Shown here: in pieces, positions 23,562 to 59,605 of the stretch | How positions within the stretch are numbered: the stretch's first letter is position 1 | Layout of the letters: each line of letters begins with the position of its first letter | The notes under the pieces: generated by a model | Seen by the model: the letters and a program-made list of their open reading frames with translations, nothing else | Database searches by the model: none | What the model was told of the DNA's origin: nothing | Translations under genes and position numbers: made by a program | Assembly (NCBI GenBank): GCA_041678605.1 | Contig: JBAYNW010000001.1 | Location: forward strand, 13,947-77,946 | Length of the DNA: 64,000 bases | Direction of reading: 5' to 3' | Source of the DNA: Candidatus Gastranaerophilaceae bacterium | GTDB lineage: Bacteria; Cyanobacteriota; Vampirovibrionia; Gastranaerophilales; Gastranaerophilaceae

Positions 23562-24728
23562 ATGTATAAAAAGATGTTTGCCAGAGTACTTATATTTGCT
23601 TATTTTTTAAGCAACTTATCGAACATCGCATATTGTGCATCGGTTGGCGATGTGTTTAAGGGCCATGCCGAAAAAACCGATAAAGCTCCTGAACAGAGCG
23701 AACTTTTTACGGGTAAAATAAATAATTTGGACAGAAAAGACATTTTAACAATGACTGTTTCACAGGTTATTGACGGGAGTTTTTCTCAAGAAGGTGATGA
23801 ATTTTTTGCGGAAGTAACCAGTGACGTTTCCGGAGAAGAAGGAGTTATAATCCCGACAGGGACGATTGCCCACGGGAAAATAAGGCAAACAACAGGCCCT
23901 CAAAGATTGGGACGTGACGGGTGGATAGATTTGGATTTTGACTACCTGATGACTCCTGACGGCAGAGAAATACCTATTGAAGGCCAAATGTCAACAAAGT
24001 TGCATACACTTAACGCTACTACAAAAATAGTCGCAACAGACCTCGGATATACCGCCGTAGGCGGTGTGGTCGGAGGGATTGTAGCACTCAACATGTTTGG
24101 GCTTGAAGCTGCTATAGCTTCTCAAGGATATACTGTAGCCGGAGGTGCCGCAGTTGGCGGGGTATTAGGACTCGGAGCCGCTTTGTACAGAAAAGGGAAA
24201 GATGTTTTGATTGCCCCGGGTGATGAAATAAGGGTAAAAATAAATACTTCCGTTCCCCTGCCGGTGTACAAAGAAACCGCCCTGCTTCAACATGAGATGC
24301 AATATGACGGACTGCAAATTAAAATTAACAACATAACTTACGAAAAAGACCCGTTTGATCAGTTAAACACGATTACTTTATCATTAACGATAACAAACAT
24401 GTCAAAACTTACTTTTTCAAGCTTTGATTTGGCACTCGTAAATGATTATAATTCTGTTTTTCAGCCGTCAATTTTTGGCGATACATCTTTGATGTTTAAG
24501 CAGATTAAACCGGGGGACAGCGTTGCGGGAAAAATTTCTTTTTCGGTTGACAACGTAAAACGCAAATTCTGGCTAACTTTTTATGACAGAAAAAACAGAA
24601 AACCTGTCGCAAAAATTTCCATTGACAATGCATATCGAAAAGTCTCAGACAAAACCAAAAAGCAAAATGAAAGATTATTCAAAAGGAAAGATTATTTAAA
24701 AGAAGCCGACCCGCTTGACGATATTTAG
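23562..24728 (+). CDS. hypothetical secreted/membrane protein with glycine-zipper segment
   Basis: N-terminal signal-like segment, a Gly-rich TM region (GGVVGGIVALN...GGAAVGGVLGLGAALY) and a beta-rich C-terminal domain. RBS GGGAGAG. Confidence 0.5.
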   Translation: MYKKMFARVLIFAYFLSNLSNIAYCASVGDVFKGHAEKTDKAPEQSELFTGKINNLDRKDILTMTVSQVIDGSFSQEGDEFFAEVTSDVSGEEGVIIPTGTIAHGKIRQTTGPQRLGRDGWIDLDFDYLMTPDGREIPIEGQMSTKLHTLNATTKIVATDLGYTAVGGVVGGIVALNMFGLEAAIASQGYTVAGGAAVGGVLGLGAALYRKGKDVLIAPGDEIRVKINTSVPLPVYKETALLQHEMQYDGLQIKINNITYEKDPFDQLNTITLSLTITNMSKLTFSSFDLALVNDYNSVFQPSIFGDTSLMFKQIKPGDSVAGKISFSVDNVKRKFWLTFYDRKNRKPVAKISIDNAYRKVSDKTKKQNERLFKRKDYLKEADPLDDI

Positions 24729-54113: not shown

Positions 54114-54671
54114 TTAACATCTATCTAAATATTCATTAGTTCTTGTATCAACTCTGATTTTATCACCGTTTTGAACAAAGAAAGGAACATTTACAACTGC
54201 ACCTGTTTCCATTGTAGCACGTTTTGTCCCGCCCTGTGCGGTGTTGCCTTTTTCGGCAGGCGGTGTGTCAACTACTTCCAATTCAACCTGCATAGGCATG
54301 TCCACCCCGATAACTTTGCCGTCGTGAAGCAATACAGAAAGGTTCATGTTCTCTTTTAAATATTTCATGCCATCTCCGATCTGAGCTTCAGACAATGAAA
54401 TTTGCTCGTAATTTTCGCTGTCCATCATAACAAATTCTTTACCTTCTTTGTACAGATATTGCATACCTCGTCTGTCTAACATCGCTCTGGCAACCTTTTC
54501 ACCCGCTCTGAAGGTTTTTTCGACGACCTGACCTGTTTCAACGTTTTTCAATTTTGTTCTGACAAAAGCCGCTCCTTTGCCCGGTTTCACGTGCAAAAAT
54601 TCAACAACTGCCCAAAGCCCATGGTCTAATTCCAACGTTAAACCTGTTTTTAAATCATTTACCGAAATCAT
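54114..54671 (-). CDS. efp: elongation factor P
   Basis: MISVNDLKTG......VEFLHVKPGKGAAFVRTKLKNV. Confidence 0.95.
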   Translation of the reverse strand: MISVNDLKTGLTLELDHGLWAVVEFLHVKPGKGAAFVRTKLKNVETGQVVEKTFRAGEKVARAMLDRRGMQYLYKEGKEFVMMDSENYEQISLSEAQIGDGMKYLKENMNLSVLLHDGKVIGVDMPMQVELEVVDTPPAEKGNTAQGGTKRATMETGAVVNVPFFVQNGDKIRVDTRTNEYLDRC

Positions 54672-54819
54672 GTCCTGCTCCTGTTAATCTATTCTGATAT
54701 TTTTTGATAATATCATAAAAAAGTCAAATTTCAAAATTGCTTAACATTTCTTGCTTGGAAATCCAAATTGGTATATTATTATTAAAGTTACGGGAATAAG
54801 AAACAGGGAACAGGAAACG

Positions 54820-55992
54820 GTGAAGGGACAAATATTTAAGATACATTCGGATTTTTATTACGTAAATTCAGGAAACGAGGTTTACGAGTGTAAGGTGCGT
54901 GAAGTTTTAAAAAAACAAAAAGAAAAGATTTTGGTCGGAGATTTTGTAGATATTTCAGAGATAAATGCTCGTCAAAGTAGGTTAGGCTATTGTCCGGCTC
55001 CATCCCCCCTTGAGGGAAGGACTCCGCTCTGTCGATTGAGTATCGACAGAGATGGAGGGAAAGGTTTGGGGTGGGGGGCTTCCAAAATTGCCCAACAGCA
55101 AAAAACTGCTGTTATAGAAAAAATCTTACCCAGAAAAAATTTCTTAACCCGTCCGAGTGTCGCAAACGTTGAGCAGGTCGTAATAGTTTCTTCGATTAAA
55201 GAGCCTGATTTGGACTTTGAACAGCTTAACAGGTACATTGCACTTGCAAAATACCATAAGATTAAAACAAAACTGTGCTTTAATAAAAATGATTTGTCGG
55301 AAGATGACACAATTATTGAAAAAATCTTTGAAATTTACGAACCGCTTGGATTTGAAATAGTTTTCACATCTGCTTTAGAAAAACTCGGAATAGAAGATTT
55401 TGTGGAACTTTTGGGAAATAAAATCACTGTTTTTTGCGGAAATTCAGGCGTGGGCAAATCGAGTTTGATAAACTCGATTTGCCCCGATTTAAATATAAAA
55501 ACAAAAGAAGTTAGCGAAAAGACAAGCCGTGGGGTTCACACGACAAGACATTGTGAGATAATCACGATAGGAAACAGTAAATCGAAAACAGGAAACAGAA
55601 GCCTCTCACTTACAAAAATTATCGATACTCCGGGATTCAGCAATGTAAAATTTGATTTTTTAATGCCTGATGACATTGATGAACTTTTTGACGAAATAAA
55701 AAAATACAAATCAAATTGTAAATTCAAGGACTGTCTGCATATCCAAGAGGAAGGCTGCGAAGTTCTTGAACACATCGATGAAATTGACATTTCAAGATAT
55801 CAGAGTTATCTTTCTTTTGTTGAGGAGGCAAAGGACTTTAAAGAAAAAGTAAAACGTCAGGGTACAAAAAAGGAAACCTCGCAAAAAGAAGGTTTGAACA
55901 GACAGGTTGCAAAAATCAGCACCCGCAAACGCCAGTCCGCCAGAAATACTCTAAAACAAAATATTTATAAGGATTTGGAAGAAGACGAATAA
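54820..55992 (+). CDS. rsgA: ribosome small subunit-dependent GTPase A with in-frame repeat insertion
   Basis: VKGQIFKIHSDFYYV OB-fold start (GTG at 54820; the ORF is open from TTG at 54751). Motifs NVEQVVIV, FNKNDL, GNSGVGKSSLIN, IIDTPGF and the zinc motif C.F.DC.H..E.GC. Confidence 0.85.
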   Translation: MKGQIFKIHSDFYYVNSGNEVYECKVREVLKKQKEKILVGDFVDISEINARQSRLGYCPAPSPLEGRTPLCRLSIDRDGGKGLGWGASKIAQQQKTAVIEKILPRKNFLTRPSVANVEQVVIVSSIKEPDLDFEQLNRYIALAKYHKIKTKLCFNKNDLSEDDTIIEKIFEIYEPLGFEIVFTSALEKLGIEDFVELLGNKITVFCGNSGVGKSSLINSICPDLNIKTKEVSEKTSRGVHTTRHCEIITIGNSKSKTGNRSLSLTKIIDTPGFSNVKFDFLMPDDIDELFDEIKKYKSNCKFKDCLHIQEEGCEVLEHIDEIDISRYQSYLSFVEEAKDFKEKVKRQGTKKETSQKEGLNRQVAKISTRKRQSARNTLKQNIYKDLEEDE

Positions 55993-56122
55993 GTAAATGC
56001 CAACATCAAGCAAGTCGTTGCGAGGAGTGAGCTTGCGAGCGACGTGGCAATCCAAAACAGTACATAATCCTTCTTGGATTGCTTCGGCTAAAGCCTCGCA
56101 AAGACATAATTTGCAAACGCCA
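55955..56122. repeat. left copy of 168-nt direct repeat (rsgA 3' end plus palindromic CGTTGCGAGG element)
   Basis: Differs from 56941-57108 at 2 positions. Confidence 0.9.
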
Positions 56123-56222
56123 ATCAGCCAGAAATGTTCAAAAGCAGAATCTTTATAAGGATTTGGACGTTTAATTGAATTTTTTAAAAAAATGGGTTAT
56201 AATTATTTAAAAGAGGTTAAAT

Positions 56223-56537
56223 ATGGATCTTTCTAAAGTCATAAAAGAATTAAATTTACGCATAAAAGAAAAGTATCCCGATTTTCGCGGGTCTTATCTG
56301 TACGGTTCTCGTGCAAGAGGTGATTATCGAGAAGACAGTGACATAGACATTGTTTTGGTTTTTGAAAAAACACATTCTTATGATGAAGAAGCAGAAATTC
56401 ATAGTATTGTTGCAGACTTAAACTGCAAATACGACATTGTGATTATTGGAATTCCTTACACAAAAAGACAGCTTAAAAAGAATTATGTCTTTCATAATGA
56501 GGTAGTGTTTAAAGGGATTTATTATGAAGCAGCATAA
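56223..56537 (+). CDS. nucleotidyltransferase-domain protein (MNT/MntA-type antitoxin-like)
   Basis: YLYGSRARGDYREDSDIDIVLVF signature. Confidence 0.8.
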   Translation: MDLSKVIKELNLRIKEKYPDFRGSYLYGSRARGDYREDSDIDIVLVFEKTHSYDEEAEIHSIVADLNCKYDIVIIGIPYTKRQLKKNYVFHNEVVFKGIYYEAA

Positions 56538-56913
56538 AGAATTGTTAGTAAAAAATTCTATGAAAAAAGCTGATGAAGCATTGACTGACGCCCAAAGTAA
56601 TTTAAGTCTTACTTTAAAACAAAATCGCAATTATTATGCTGTATTTTATATAGTTTTGGCCTTAGCTTATTTGGATGATTTTCAAACAGGTAAACACCAT
56701 CAACTTATGGGCTGGTTTAATAGGGAGTATATTTATAAAAATAAGATTTTTGGCGATAAATTAAAAACTATTTACCAAACATTAATTGCCAACAGAGAAA
56801 AATTTGATTATAGCGTCATGGAAACGCCTAAAGAAGAAACTGTTAAAAAAGGTTTTGAAGATGCGAAATTTTTCGTTCAAACGGTAAAAGAATATATTTT
56901 GAAAAGACTATAG
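56524..56913 (+). CDS. HEPN-domain protein (toxin-like partner of MNT)
   Basis: Overlaps the upstream NTase gene by 14 nt. Helical, with an R-E-K-F-D-Y (RxxxDY) motif typical of MNT-associated HEPN. Confidence 0.7.
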   Translation: MKQHKELLVKNSMKKADEALTDAQSNLSLTLKQNRNYYAVFYIVLALAYLDDFQTGKHHQLMGWFNREYIYKNKIFGDKLKTIYQTLIANREKFDYSVMETPKEETVKKGFEDAKFFVQTVKEYILKRL

Positions 56914-56940
56914 GCAGATAATCAGCCAGAAACGTCCAGA

Positions 56941-57108
56941 AACAAAATATTTATAAGGATTTGGAAGAAGACAAATAAGTAAATGCCAACATCAAGCAAG
57001 TCGTTGCGAGGAGTGAGTTTGCGAGCGACGTGGCAATCCAAAACAGTACATAATCCTTCTTGGATTGCTTCGGCTAAAGCCTCGCAAAGACATAATTTGC
57101 AAACGCCA
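56941..57108. repeat. right copy of 168-nt direct repeat
   Basis: Differs from 55955-56122 at 2 positions. Confidence 0.9.
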
Positions 57109-57189
57109 GTCCGCCAGAAACGTCAAAAAGTTTGCAGGAAAATTATAAAATTGTCTCAAGCAAAGGGTTGTAACCCTTTATTTGTGTTT

Positions 57190-57390
57190 TTAATCAGAAT
57201 ATTGAAACAATTCTTGCGTATTGCATTCCAATGCCCAGCAAATTTTGTTTAAAGTCTCAAAATCAACCCCTTTAGTTTTATTATAATAAAGATTTGAAAT
57301 AGTGTTATAATTTAACCCTGTCATCTGGCTAAGTTCTGCTATTTTTAACCTTTTAATTCCCATAATTATGGATAGTCTATTTTTAATCAT
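57190..57390 (-). CDS. XRE/Cro-C1 family helix-turn-helix regulator
   Basis: MIKNRLSIIMGIKRLKIAELSQMTGLNYNTISNLY HTH pattern. The ORF is open to 57429, but the ATG at 57390 fits the family. Confidence 0.7.
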   Translation of the reverse strand: MIKNRLSIIMGIKRLKIAELSQMTGLNYNTISNLYYNKTKGVDFETLNKICWALECNTQELFQYSD

Positions 57391-57427
57391 AAATTTGATT
57401 GTAACATTTTGTTCTTTACATGTTGAC

Positions 57428-57449
57428 ATATCTTATTATAATAAGATAT
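57428..57449. promoter_or_regulatory. perfect 22-bp palindrome ATATCTTATTATAATAAGATAT, candidate operator
   Basis: Lies in the divergent XRE/prepilin intergenic region, adjacent to a TTGACA hexamer (57423-57428). Confidence 0.4.
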
Positions 57450-57500
57450 CGTTTACTATGGTAAGAACTTTCTTTAATATTTTTTAACATAGAGGCAACT

Positions 57501-58193
57501 TTGAAAAAATTAATTATAAAAAACAAAATTAAATCACTAAAATCGTTTACTTTAGCCGAAACACTGATTACATTATTGATAATCGGGATTGTGGCAATTC
57601 TTACGATAAAATCATTGATTAGCTATACAAGCGACCTTGAAATCAGATCTTCATGGAAAAAAGATTTTTCAACCTTAAGTCAGGCAATTCAGCTCCTGAG
57701 AAATGATAATGGTGGAACTTTACTCGGTTTGTGTGCTGGTGGTGATCACACTTGTTTTAAAAATGCTCTTGCTCCATATTTAAGTTATTTAAAAGCTTGT
57801 GATATGTCTTCCAGTACAACCCAGCCTGGCGGATGCTGGCATATCTATAATGGAGACGGTACTTTTCAGGCAAAATATTTAAGTGGTGATGCCGTTACTA
57901 CATCTCATTGGCTTATTTCCCCCGCGGGATTTGTTCTTAAAAATGGTCATCTCTTATATATTTCTTGGTATAAATCAGATTGTAAAGAGACAGGATATGG
58001 CCCGAACGCTCTCTCTTGTGGATATATATCGGTCGATGTTAATGGTTTTAAAGGCCCTAATACTGTAGGTAAAGATATATTTGAAACATCCGTCAGGGCA
58101 GATGTTTTAAAACCTATTGGCTCGATGGATGACAACTTTAACAATTCTTGTTCAGGAGCCGGCTATGGCTGTGCTGCTAAATATTTAGAATAG
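57501..58193 (+). CDS. prepilin-type N-terminal cleavage/methylation domain protein (pilin/pseudopilin-like)
   Basis: FTLAETLITLLIIGIVAIL signal region and VDVNGFKGPNTVGKDIF motif. TTG start. Confidence 0.7.
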   Translation: MKKLIIKNKIKSLKSFTLAETLITLLIIGIVAILTIKSLISYTSDLEIRSSWKKDFSTLSQAIQLLRNDNGGTLLGLCAGGDHTCFKNALAPYLSYLKACDMSSSTTQPGGCWHIYNGDGTFQAKYLSGDAVTTSHWLISPAGFVLKNGHLLYISWYKSDCKETGYGPNALSCGYISVDVNGFKGPNTVGKDIFETSVRADVLKPIGSMDDNFNNSCSGAGYGCAAKYLE

Positions 58194-58280: not shown

Positions 58281-59144
58281 ATGAAAAAACTTATTAAATT
58301 AATCGACGAAAACTTGGACAAGTTATTGCCCGTGCAATACCCGCAAGAGATTTTTGAATCCATGCGTTACAGCGTTTTGGCCGAAGGCAAAAGGCTTCGT
58401 CCTGTCTTGTGTCTTGAGGCGGCAAGAGTTTTCGGCGGAAAAATCGAGGACGCAATTCCTACTGCGTGTGCAATCGAAATGCTCCACGCCCAAAGCTTAA
58501 TACATGACGATTTACCCTGTATGGACAACGACGATTACAGGCGGGGAAAATTGACCAACCACAAGGTCTTTGGCGAGGCCGTGGCGGTTTTGGCAGGCGA
58601 CGCACTGTTAACTTTTGCTCCTCAGCTTATAATCCAAAAAAGCAATTTGCCTTCTGAAATAAAATTAAGACTTTTGGAAGAATATTGTATTGCGGCCGGA
58701 GCCTACGGGCTTATTGCCGGACAGGCTGTGGATATAGAATCCGAAGGTAAAGAAATTTCACCTGAAACTCTTGAATTTATTCACACGCACAAAACCGCCG
58801 ACCTTTTTAAATTAGCACTCAAGGCGGGGGCGATTATTGCAGGTGCGGGCGAAGAAAAAATTTCTGCAATGGAAAATTTCGGACAAAACCTCGGGTTTGC
58901 GTTTCAAATTTGTGACGATATTTTGGATGAAACTTCAACATTTGAAGAACTCGGTAAAACTCTTGGTAAGGATAAAGCTGCACAAAAACCTACATATACG
59001 GCAATTTTTGGGCTGGAAAAGGCCCGCACGGAAGTGATTTGCCTTTTGGATAATACTTGTGGTATAATGGCAAAACACGGTATCCAATCCGGCGTTTTCT
59101 GTGAGATAATCGACGGGATAAAAGAAAGGGCGACTAAGTGTTAG
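58281..59144 (+). CDS. polyprenyl diphosphate synthase (FPP/GGPP synthase type)
   Basis: LIHDDLPCMDNDDYRRGK (first DDxxD) and FQICDDILD (second DDxxD). Confidence 0.85.
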   Translation: MKKLIKLIDENLDKLLPVQYPQEIFESMRYSVLAEGKRLRPVLCLEAARVFGGKIEDAIPTACAIEMLHAQSLIHDDLPCMDNDDYRRGKLTNHKVFGEAVAVLAGDALLTFAPQLIIQKSNLPSEIKLRLLEEYCIAAGAYGLIAGQAVDIESEGKEISPETLEFIHTHKTADLFKLALKAGAIIAGAGEEKISAMENFGQNLGFAFQICDDILDETSTFEELGKTLGKDKAAQKPTYTAIFGLEKARTEVICLLDNTCGIMAKHGIQSGVFCEIIDGIKERATKC

Positions 59145-59605
59145 CAAAAGCGGATATTTTAAACACGGGGTATGAAGTTTTATTGACAGCCTTATTTGCG
59201 GCTTGTATTGCTCAGATAATGAAATTTATCTTGCATCTGATTTTTGAAAAGAAAATTAATTTTAAAATTTTTACAACAACGGGCGGCATGCCCAGTTCAC
59301 ATTCTGCTTCTGTCGTTAGTTTATCAACTTCTGTCGGGCTTATTACGGGATTTGATTCCATATCTTTTGCTATTGCAACCGGATACGCACTTATTGTAAT
59401 GTATGACGCAGCAGGTTTAAGGCGTGCTTCGGGCAAAATGGCTGTTTGCCTGAATAAGATTATGGATGATTTTTACAAGCACGATGTTCAATCGGTCGGC
59501 GGGAAACTTAAAGAACTCCTCGGCCACACTCCCGTTGAAGTTTTTGCCGGTGCCATTTTTGGTGCTTTATACGCTTATTATATGCATTTTATGGTTTTGC
59601 AGTAA
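59138..59605 (+). CDS. divergent PAP2 / DUF212 family membrane protein
   Basis: GGMPSSHSASV, YDAAGLRR and GHTPVEV motifs. GTG start overlaps the upstream stop. Confidence 0.75.
   Translation: MLAKADILNTGYEVLLTALFAACIAQIMKFILHLIFEKKINFKIFTTTGGMPSSHSASVVSLSTSVGLITGFDSISFAIATGYALIVMYDAAGLRRASGKMAVCLNKIMDDFYKHDVQSVGGKLKELLGHTPVEVFAGAIFGALYAYYMHFMVLQ

Follow-up and report, generated by a model that had tools for sequence, protein, structure and literature searches.

The gene rsgA, which encodes the ribosome small-subunit-dependent GTPase A, is followed in one Candidatus Gastranaerophilaceae genome by overlapping genes for a minimal nucleotidyltransferase (MNT) and a HEPN-domain protein, and this pair lies between two direct repeats of 168 nucleotides (nt) in which the end of rsgA and a palindromic element recur. 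The window analysed is a 64,000-nt stretch of that genome (GenBank assembly GCA_041678605.1, contig JBAYNW010000001.1, positions 13,947 to 77,946 of the forward strand), and coordinates without a contig label are positions within it. The assembly is metagenome-derived and comprises 1.77 Mb in 58 contigs, of which C1 (97.7 kb) holds the locus. The rsgA gene, its successive ends (here called tails, T1 to T4), the repeats and the gene pair are arranged as follows.

54820-55992, + strand: rsgA, GTG start (Pfam RsgA_GTPase 7e-49, RsgA_N 7e-14)
55927-55992, + strand: T1, the tail in use, KRQSARNTLKQNIYKDLEEDE then stop, contiguous and in frame with the rsgA body
55955-56122, + strand: repeat copy A, 168 nt
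56014-56105, + strand: pal1, a 92-nt miniature element bounded by terminal inverted repeats (TIRs), with two inverted hairpin units GTCGTTGC...GCAATC
56115-56174, + strand: T2, a displaced complete tail, KRQSARNVQKQNLYKDLDV then stop
56175-56203, + strand: promoter-like site TTGAAT-17-TATAAT upstream of MNT (10/12 consensus matches, a consensus match only)
56223-56537, + strand: MNT, putative antitoxin, 104 aa (Polbeta 4e-14, NTP_transf_2 1e-11)
56524-56913, + strand: HEPN-domain protein, putative toxin, 129 aa (PF05168 1e-6)
56921-56978, + strand: T3, a displaced tail cut at its 5' end, ..SARNVQKQNIYKDLEEDK then stop
56941-57108, + strand: repeat copy B, 168 nt, 2 mismatches against copy A
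57000-57091, + strand: pal2, second copy of the palindromic miniature element
57101-57148 (57099 with the preceding GC), + strand: T4, a partial tail, KRQSARNVKK..., whose first 22 nt equal 55925-55946

Repeats, stacked gene ends and the gene pair

The repeat copies have a period of exactly 986 nt and differ at two of their 168 bases (55987, G/A; 56032, C/T), a similarity beyond chance; the longest identical stretch between them is 90 nt. An earlier note, made from the sequence alone, had described near-identical repeats that open with the 38 nt closing the rsgA reading frame, continue into a palindromic element and enclose a nucleotidyltransferase and a HEPN gene, and all of this is borne out, the last point by the gene calls. 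Each copy starts with the final 12 codons of an rsgA allele and their stop; then come a 21-nt spacer GTAAATGCCAACATCAAGCAA, the 92-nt palindrome, ATAATTT and GCAAACGCCA, the last of these being the first bases of another rsgA tail. A weaker similarity spans 209 nt at 93% (~55935-56144 versus ~56921-57130). Centrally the copies are 99% identical and immediately outside the 168-nt core they differ by 25-35%; the two palindrome units differ at 6 of 9 nt at their left ends, and their right ends differ in the 20-mer designated Q, AAACGCCA(G/A)TC(C/A)GCCAGAAA.

Copies of Q in T1 to T4 are designated Q1, Q2, q3 and Q4, respectively. Q is present at full length at three sites only (55927, 56115 and 57101); the earlier count of four included 56921, where q3 consists of just the last 13 nt, AATCAGCCAGAAA. 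Together with the preceding GC, Q1 is identical to Q4 over 22/22 nt (the G..C variant), and Q2 is identical to q3 over 13/13 nt (the A..A variant). On either side of each palindrome unit the Q cores differ at two sites.

All four tails retain intact reading frames. The end of the gene has been replaced, in that T1 is in frame with rsgA and T2-T4 are intact tails displaced downstream. T3 starts 7 nt past the HEPN stop, out of the HEPN frame, and the rsgA homology of T4 runs out at ~57130. What had been taken for a degraded third tail near 56147 is actually the second half of T2, which is complete and in frame. Codon comparisons give five synonymous changes and one conservative replacement between T2 and T3, four and one replacement between T2 and T4, and four and three replacements between T1 and T2. 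T1 is the sole tail that can be under selection in this genome, and given that the differences are mostly synonymous, the other tails must have diverged as real rsgA ends in other lineages.

The T1 tail type is conserved among relatives, and T3 matches the tail of one relative (locus L083) at 40/41 nt. All of the tail variants occur as native rsgA ends in relatives, for example ...NVQKQNIYKDLEE and stop in L083/P0115 and ...RDLEEDE and stop in L085/P0085. The ending of T2 is short, as in lineages in which MNT-HEPN follows rsgA (L050/L051), and T1 and T3 end in ...EEDE/EEDK, as in lineages with other cargo. Judged by these sequences, the stacked tails look as if one insertion after another had taken place at the rsgA end.

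The MNT and HEPN genes overlap by 14 nt. HepT/MntA (HEPN/MNT) pairs are type VII toxin-antitoxin systems (PMC7641770, PMC11586414), and the present pair resembles them in that an MNT gene with the G-S...D-x-D nucleotidyltransferase signature (G-S-x(n)-D-x-D) precedes an overlapping HEPN gene. It departs from them in a HEPN protein of the PF05168/UPF0332 type, with an invariant motif R91-E-K-F-D-Y96 (R-E-x-F-D-Y) that has no histidine in place of the canonical Rx4-6H, and in an MNT that scores 43.4 bits against the MntA_antitoxin equivalog, below the 60-bit cut-off. HEPN homologs are 70-78% identical and HEPN structures are among the PDB matches; exact-protein look-ups of MNT and HEPN returned no match. 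The pair is probably a toxin-antitoxin (TA) module of the HepT/MntA kind. Truncation of HEPN at the junction was considered and dropped, because HEPN C-termini vary across the alignment and the paralog in this genome stops at the same position. The MNT-HEPN family is also found in unrelated contexts, including a paralog on contig C21, and palindromic repeats never flank it there.

The slot downstream of rsgA and the palindrome family

Beyond T4 the interval continues with further genes before the conserved neighbours of rsgA are reached.

57162-57179: terminator-like hairpin, separating T4 from the XRE 3' end
57190-57429, - strand: XRE/Cro-type helix-turn-helix gene, 79 aa, additional slot cargo (HTH_26 2e-18)
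57501-58193, + strand: prepilin-like protein, 230 aa, additional slot cargo (N_methyl motif)
58281-59144, + strand: polyprenyl synthase (ispA-like), the conserved right neighbour of rsgA in relatives
59138-59605: DUF212 gene

In most family representatives the rsgA stop directly abuts or overlaps the polyprenyl synthase gene, and DUF212 follows. L083 and L085 carry one unrelated gene of ~300 aa in this slot, with neither a tail copy nor a TIR. In L050 and L051 the order rsgA-MNT-HEPN-synthase-DUF212 is tightly packed, the HEPN stop lying 1-2 nt before the synthase start, and L052 and L053 have the order MNT-HEPN-synthase with a gap of ~20 nt between the last two. The HEPN proteins of these four relatives are 74-78% identical to that of the window. 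No palindrome or second tail was found at the MNT-HEPN slot of L050-L053, the contigs of L052 and L053 ending just upstream of MNT. In L050 and L051 the interval from rsgA end to MNT matches T2, its stop and the promoter-like/ribosome-binding spacer that precedes MNT in every alignment column, and T2 sits at the native-tail position of relatives carrying MNT-HEPN. The contigs of L052 (GCA_964556295.1) and L053 (DRR835038) break off 28-40 nt before MNT begins, directly after the stop of an upstream open reading frame (ORF); a repeat that interrupts assembly may lie at this position there too, and the two assemblies are possibly not independent.

The best rsgA homologs are ~72-74% identical overall, the alignments of relatives reach residue 382-389 of 390, and a 26-nt pattern from the rsgA body had no match in metagenome contigs. 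Homologs carry names that assign the genome to Candidatus Gastranaerophilales. Against the MNT-HEPN relatives the flanking genes of the window are 79% (rsgA), 79-81% (synthase) and 72-77% (DUF212) identical, and against relatives with other cargo 82-83%, 82-83% and 74-87%. Because the flanking genes are about equidistant from both groups, the cargo is patchy and does not track descent. On this comparison the rsgA-synthase junction is a variable slot, occupied by different cargo in different Gastranaerophilales lineages.

Between rsgA and the synthase the ORFs are MNT, HEPN, XRE and prepilin-like only, with no recombinase gene, and no PF00589 recombinase was found on contig C1. Three tyrosine recombinase genes (PF00589 matches) lie on contigs C4, C7 and C10.

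The palindromes belong to a dispersed family. The ends of pal1 and pal2 are GTCGTTGCGAGG and CCTCGCAAAGAC; the 14-mer GTCGTTGCGAGGAG occurs 51 times in the assembly, frequently at contig ends, and with one mismatch allowed the termini number ~97 of the left type and ~89 of the right type, with 41 elements bounded by TIRs. Both halves of pal1 are hairpin units GTC(G/T)TTGC...GCAATC, of which the genome has 93, and the right half of the palindrome is present in 12/60 genera of the family. The predicted fold of pal1 has -36 kcal/mol with a z-score of only -1.75, so that nothing favours a structured RNA; an Rfam scan of 54500-57600 gave no match. Two longer TIR-bounded members (C17:24038-24428, 391 nt; C5:53288-53750, 463 nt) exactly enclose GIY-YIG genes of 98 aa (PF01541 8e-16; the C17 gene lies at 24078-24371), the small products of which are similar to the UPF0213 structures 1zg2 and 1ywl. 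The termini of pal1 match those of the GIY-YIG-bearing elements, and the two palindromes at rsgA accordingly resemble miniatures of that element from which the gene is missing.

Flanking direct repeats were sought by comparing 100 nt per side for the 41 bounded elements, with a random background of 5-12 nt. At the 38 other TIR-bounded copies the longest common substring was 6-10 nt, within that background; only the copies beside rsgA and those in a tandem array on C17 had repeats above it. Since the other copies lack long flanking repeats, the rsgA-tail duplication is not a transposition footprint, and long target duplication was rejected as a property of the family. The C17 array (23940-24700) consists of a GIY-YIG element with two tandem palindrome copies on one side (recurring every 114 nt together with a 23-nt spacer) and, on the other, its terminus plus flank tandemly duplicated as a 49-nt unit; from such arrays the TIR family tends to make local tandem duplications at its ends.

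Beyond this genome, the terminal motif GTCATTGCGAGGAGCGAAGCGACGAAGCAATC with an inverted partner ...CTCGCAATGAC is found in metagenome-assembled genomes of Treponema, Ruminococcus, Chloroherpeton, Dependentiae and Melioribacter (loci L128-L138), and a hairpin repeat type with this terminus is spread across phyla. A BLAST search of 400 sampled family genomes with the tail-plus-palindrome unit returned palindrome fragments only, and the pattern of an rsgA tail followed by a TIR was found in two public collections at unrelated loci in other phyla only.

The remaining slot cargo and rsgA itself show further traces of repeats. The XRE and prepilin-like genes are divergent, and the perfect 22-bp palindrome that separates them (57428-57449), with strong promoter-like hexamers adjoining on both strands, is a likely operator. 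The prepilin-like protein has ~45 paralogs in the 1.77-Mb genome, many of which begin a few bases from a TIR-family repeat array (C11:55945-56061/56062-56772, C13:18980/18979, C36:685/681, C26:24131/24103), an arrangement that may recall the repeat-embedded pilin cassettes of Neisseria. Among the 400 genomes the best match to the prepilin-like cargo is only 45% identical, too distant to trace the XRE-prepilin module. In rsgA there are in-frame repeat-derived insertions at ~54970-55100 (past the OB-fold end, ~40 codons, with a poly-C/poly-G palindrome) and at ~55570-55615 (in the loop HCEII..[insert]..IIDTPGF). The same loop carries differing inserts of 5-45 residues in dozens of Gastranaerophilales rsgA homologs and thus appears to be a recurrent hot spot of in-frame insertion.

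Origin of the mosaic

We lean, by a modest measure, toward homology-driven insertion-duplication as the origin of the locus, in which allelic DNA would have been imported into the variable slot more than once. The imports would be diverged copies of the same locus from related lineages, leaving a mosaic in the slot, and each would have been anchored by the short conserved rsgA 3' end and later also by the adjoining palindromic repeat. If each import was resolved as an insertion-duplication, through a single-crossover (Campbell-type) or one-sided-homology event, one extra rsgA tail would result per event. T2-MNT-HEPN would then derive from a homologous locus where the TA pair directly follows the rsgA stop, and the 168-nt repeats would be the homology block (rsgA tail, spacer and miniature element) that hosted the last exchange.

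Most simply, in that last step a 986-bp circular or tandem intermediate (block-T2-MNT-HEPN-junction-T3 start), donated by a homologous locus in a lineage with MNT-HEPN after rsgA, would have recombined within the block of a recipient chromosome that already read rsgA-T1-block-T4-XRE-prepilin. Recombination of this kind was probably the last step. The data show the anatomy, the repeat family, how relatives compare and that the tails diverged synonymously; the sequence of events, the circular or tandem intermediate and a part for the nuclease, if any, are inferred. The palindrome could stimulate exchange, but its transposition did not make the duplication.

Two properties of the repeats are consistent with this reading. 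The 99% identity at their centre, with strongly differing outer ends, argues for a recombination or conversion tract rather than for copies of an element with defined attachment (att) ends. In addition, the nested pattern, in which Q1 equals Q4, Q2 equals q3 and two pairs of outer flanks are distinguished, is what one crossover inside the block between diverged alleles would predict. Further support comes from the mostly synonymous differences among the tails, the variable slot with its patchy cargo, the match of T2 and its spacer to L050 and L051, the ordinariness of the palindrome in this genome and the GIY-YIG genes found inside members of its family. An AATCAG microhomology at the HEPN-T3 junction was dropped as an argument because it is too weak.

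Several considerations weigh against insertion-duplication. Only two sites in Q are variable, and the nested pattern would arise by coincidence roughly 1 time in 4. No concrete history works with fewer than two events, or with fewer than two lineages that had the tail-palindrome-tail arrangement beforehand, and the model does not account for the first such arrangement. The identical 22-nt repeats that bound the whole insert would fit an att core too. Natural transformation in this organism is an assumption. The model would stand, moreover, on a single assembly and on relatives whose homologs are no closer than about 80%.

The earlier note had instead proposed site-specific insertions that each regenerate the rsgA 3' end, with the repeats as att duplications of an MNT/HEPN cassette. 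In its fullest form, small circles with an attP like the rsgA 3' end would integrate serially at a core in AAACGCCAGTCCGCCAGAAA by means of a recombinase encoded elsewhere, as a 187-nt unit of tail and palindrome (twice) and a unit of ~800 nt with tail, MNT and HEPN, each bringing a new gene end. Such a history would account for a gene end regenerated every time with T1 in frame and for the Q-like sequence beside every unit, including the 22/22-nt and 13/13-nt identities, and the genome does encode three tyrosine recombinases. However, the 97.7-kb contig lacks a recombinase, and a 187-nt circle is very small as a recombinase substrate. The palindrome units, 99% alike centrally, mismatch at 6 of 9 nt on the left and carry different Q variants on the right, and as copies of one element they would thus have inconsistent att arms. 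The unit was missing from the 400 sampled family genomes and, in pattern scans, from the two public collections. The palindrome itself is nothing unusual, since the dispersed family to which it belongs leaves no long target duplications at its other sites. Where relatives carry MNT-HEPN in the slot, there is neither a displaced tail nor a core repeat, and the pairs of L050 and L051, which come without repeats, palindrome or displaced tail, speak against the view of the repeats as duplications made by the cassette. Of the earlier proposal, the stacked regenerated ends (T1 in frame, T2-T4 displaced) are supported, and the att origin fits poorly. Of the two routes it offered for the cassette, mobilisation in trans or recombination between palindromic elements, the latter is close to the reading favoured here. 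Serial att-site integration is less likely than homology-driven insertion-duplication, and we regard it as rather unlikely.

Alternatively, no foreign DNA may be needed if a 986-bp segment from the rsgA tail to the HEPN end was doubled internally by unequal crossing-over or microhomology, with later deletions and gene conversion. The exact 986-nt period, the illegitimate-looking junction right past the HEPN stop and the tandem arrays of the repeat family on C17 (periods of 114 nt and 49 nt) would all suit such a duplication. Copies made in place would nevertheless diverge neutrally, whereas the tail differences are mostly synonymous; Q4 should resemble Q2, and q3 resemble Q1, and the opposite is observed; and the second MNT-HEPN copy has left no trace. 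This origin is unlikely.

An assembly artefact, in which metagenome strain variants sharing a block were merged in one contig or a graph loop was traversed once too often, would yield exactly this structure, as the outcome of a cycle through a shared node, and in the 58-contig genome members of the repeat family often lie at contig ends. Even so, the junction from the HEPN stop to T3 needs some real molecule, two single-nucleotide differences and a longest identical stretch of 90 nt make the copies resolvable with long k-mers, and the assembly has no alternative contig for the locus, all of which makes an artefact quite unlikely. Finally, two transpositions of the palindrome into rsgA-tail-like targets, each duplicating ~20-30 nt, would place rsgA-tail sequence on both sides of both copies as observed, but this is very improbable given that the 38 other copies have no flank repeat above background (6-10 nt against 5-12 nt), that the flanking 'duplications' are non-identical within a copy and that no rsgA-like target is expected downstream of HEPN.

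Known systems and significance

Prophage e14 and phage 21 insert at the 3' end of icd in E. coli, where the insert brings a replacement end that leaves the gene intact and displaces the original end downstream; they have their own integrase and a defined att core. The rsgA locus is alike in that a replacement end is supplied and the native end displaced, and differs in lacking an integrase and in having repeat ends that do not agree with a fixed core. Nor does the locus resemble an integron cassette with attC (RYYYAAC...GTTRRRY ends, IntI): the palindrome ends in GTCGTTGCGAGG and CCTCGCAAAGAC, the contig has no integrase and MNT has its own promoter-like site.

A closer likeness is found in the minimal mobile elements (MMEs) of Neisseria and their NIME/dRS3 repeat arrays, in which variable whole-gene cargo lies between two conserved genes, and dispersed short palindromic repeats beside the slot are thought to promote exchange with imported DNA, with no dedicated recombinase (Saunders & Snyder 2002, via PMC3898611). 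Here too the same two conserved genes bracket cargo that is empty, a ~300-aa ORF, MNT-HEPN or the present mosaic, with dispersed palindromic repeats in the slot and no dedicated recombinase involved. The patchy cargo across lineages thus places the slot within the MME definition (PMC3898611). The likeness has its limits, since the rsgA slot was compared among genera and species rather than strains, exchange by homologous recombination would be a deduction, and no stacked duplicate ends of a flanking gene are described for MMEs.

The Ssn GIY-YIG single-strand nucleases are likewise associated with NTS/SRM hairpin repeats, multicopy repeats found on either side of single-domain GIY-YIG genes of small size (Chenal et al. 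2025, PMC11893778). In the present genome multicopy hairpins also stand on both sides of small GIY-YIG genes and bracket other genes in a repeat-gene-repeat order, and in both systems the units start GTC(A/G)T and end ATC. The published degenerate SRM motif has two matches in the genome, as against 2-3 in shuffles, and none in pal1, and the relation of the palindrome family to Ssn-SRM may be one of resemblance only; the nuclease is a predicted one, recognised by PF01541 and likeness to UPF0213 structures, and at most a candidate for the Ssn clade (cd10448). As to mechanism, in Campbell-type events and homology-facilitated illegitimate recombination during natural transformation (term from PMC8116780), one segment of homology likewise leaves an insert between duplicated segments, with an illegitimate junction possible opposite, although these events are known from laboratory transformation of model bacteria.

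A bolder proposal would make the 986-bp unit a recombinase-free 'homology cassette' that exits as a circle via the 168-nt repeats and re-enters related genomes via the rsgA end it carries, restoring the essential gene, while GIY-YIG enzymes nick the palindrome hairpins and the TA pair penalises loss; we consider this doubtful and unlikely. Rather than a novel type of mobile cassette, the locus looks like a scar left at a variable site when related strains exchanged DNA. With 168-nt direct repeats around the TA pair, RecA recombination should delete exactly that pair and leave rsgA intact, and a TA pair between repeats able to delete it precisely would offer a straightforward natural experiment on whether such pairs guard against being lost. 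The locus would also be a locus-level example of dispersed GIY-YIG-associated palindromes at recombination breakpoints. Current ideas are not overturned, and the value of the locus lies in illustration and in a testable prediction. If the favoured reading is true, it is a clear fossil record of recombinase-free cargo swapping at a fixed slot in Gastranaerophilales, an uncultured gut lineage, in which each swap would have deposited a dated copy of the neighbouring gene's end.

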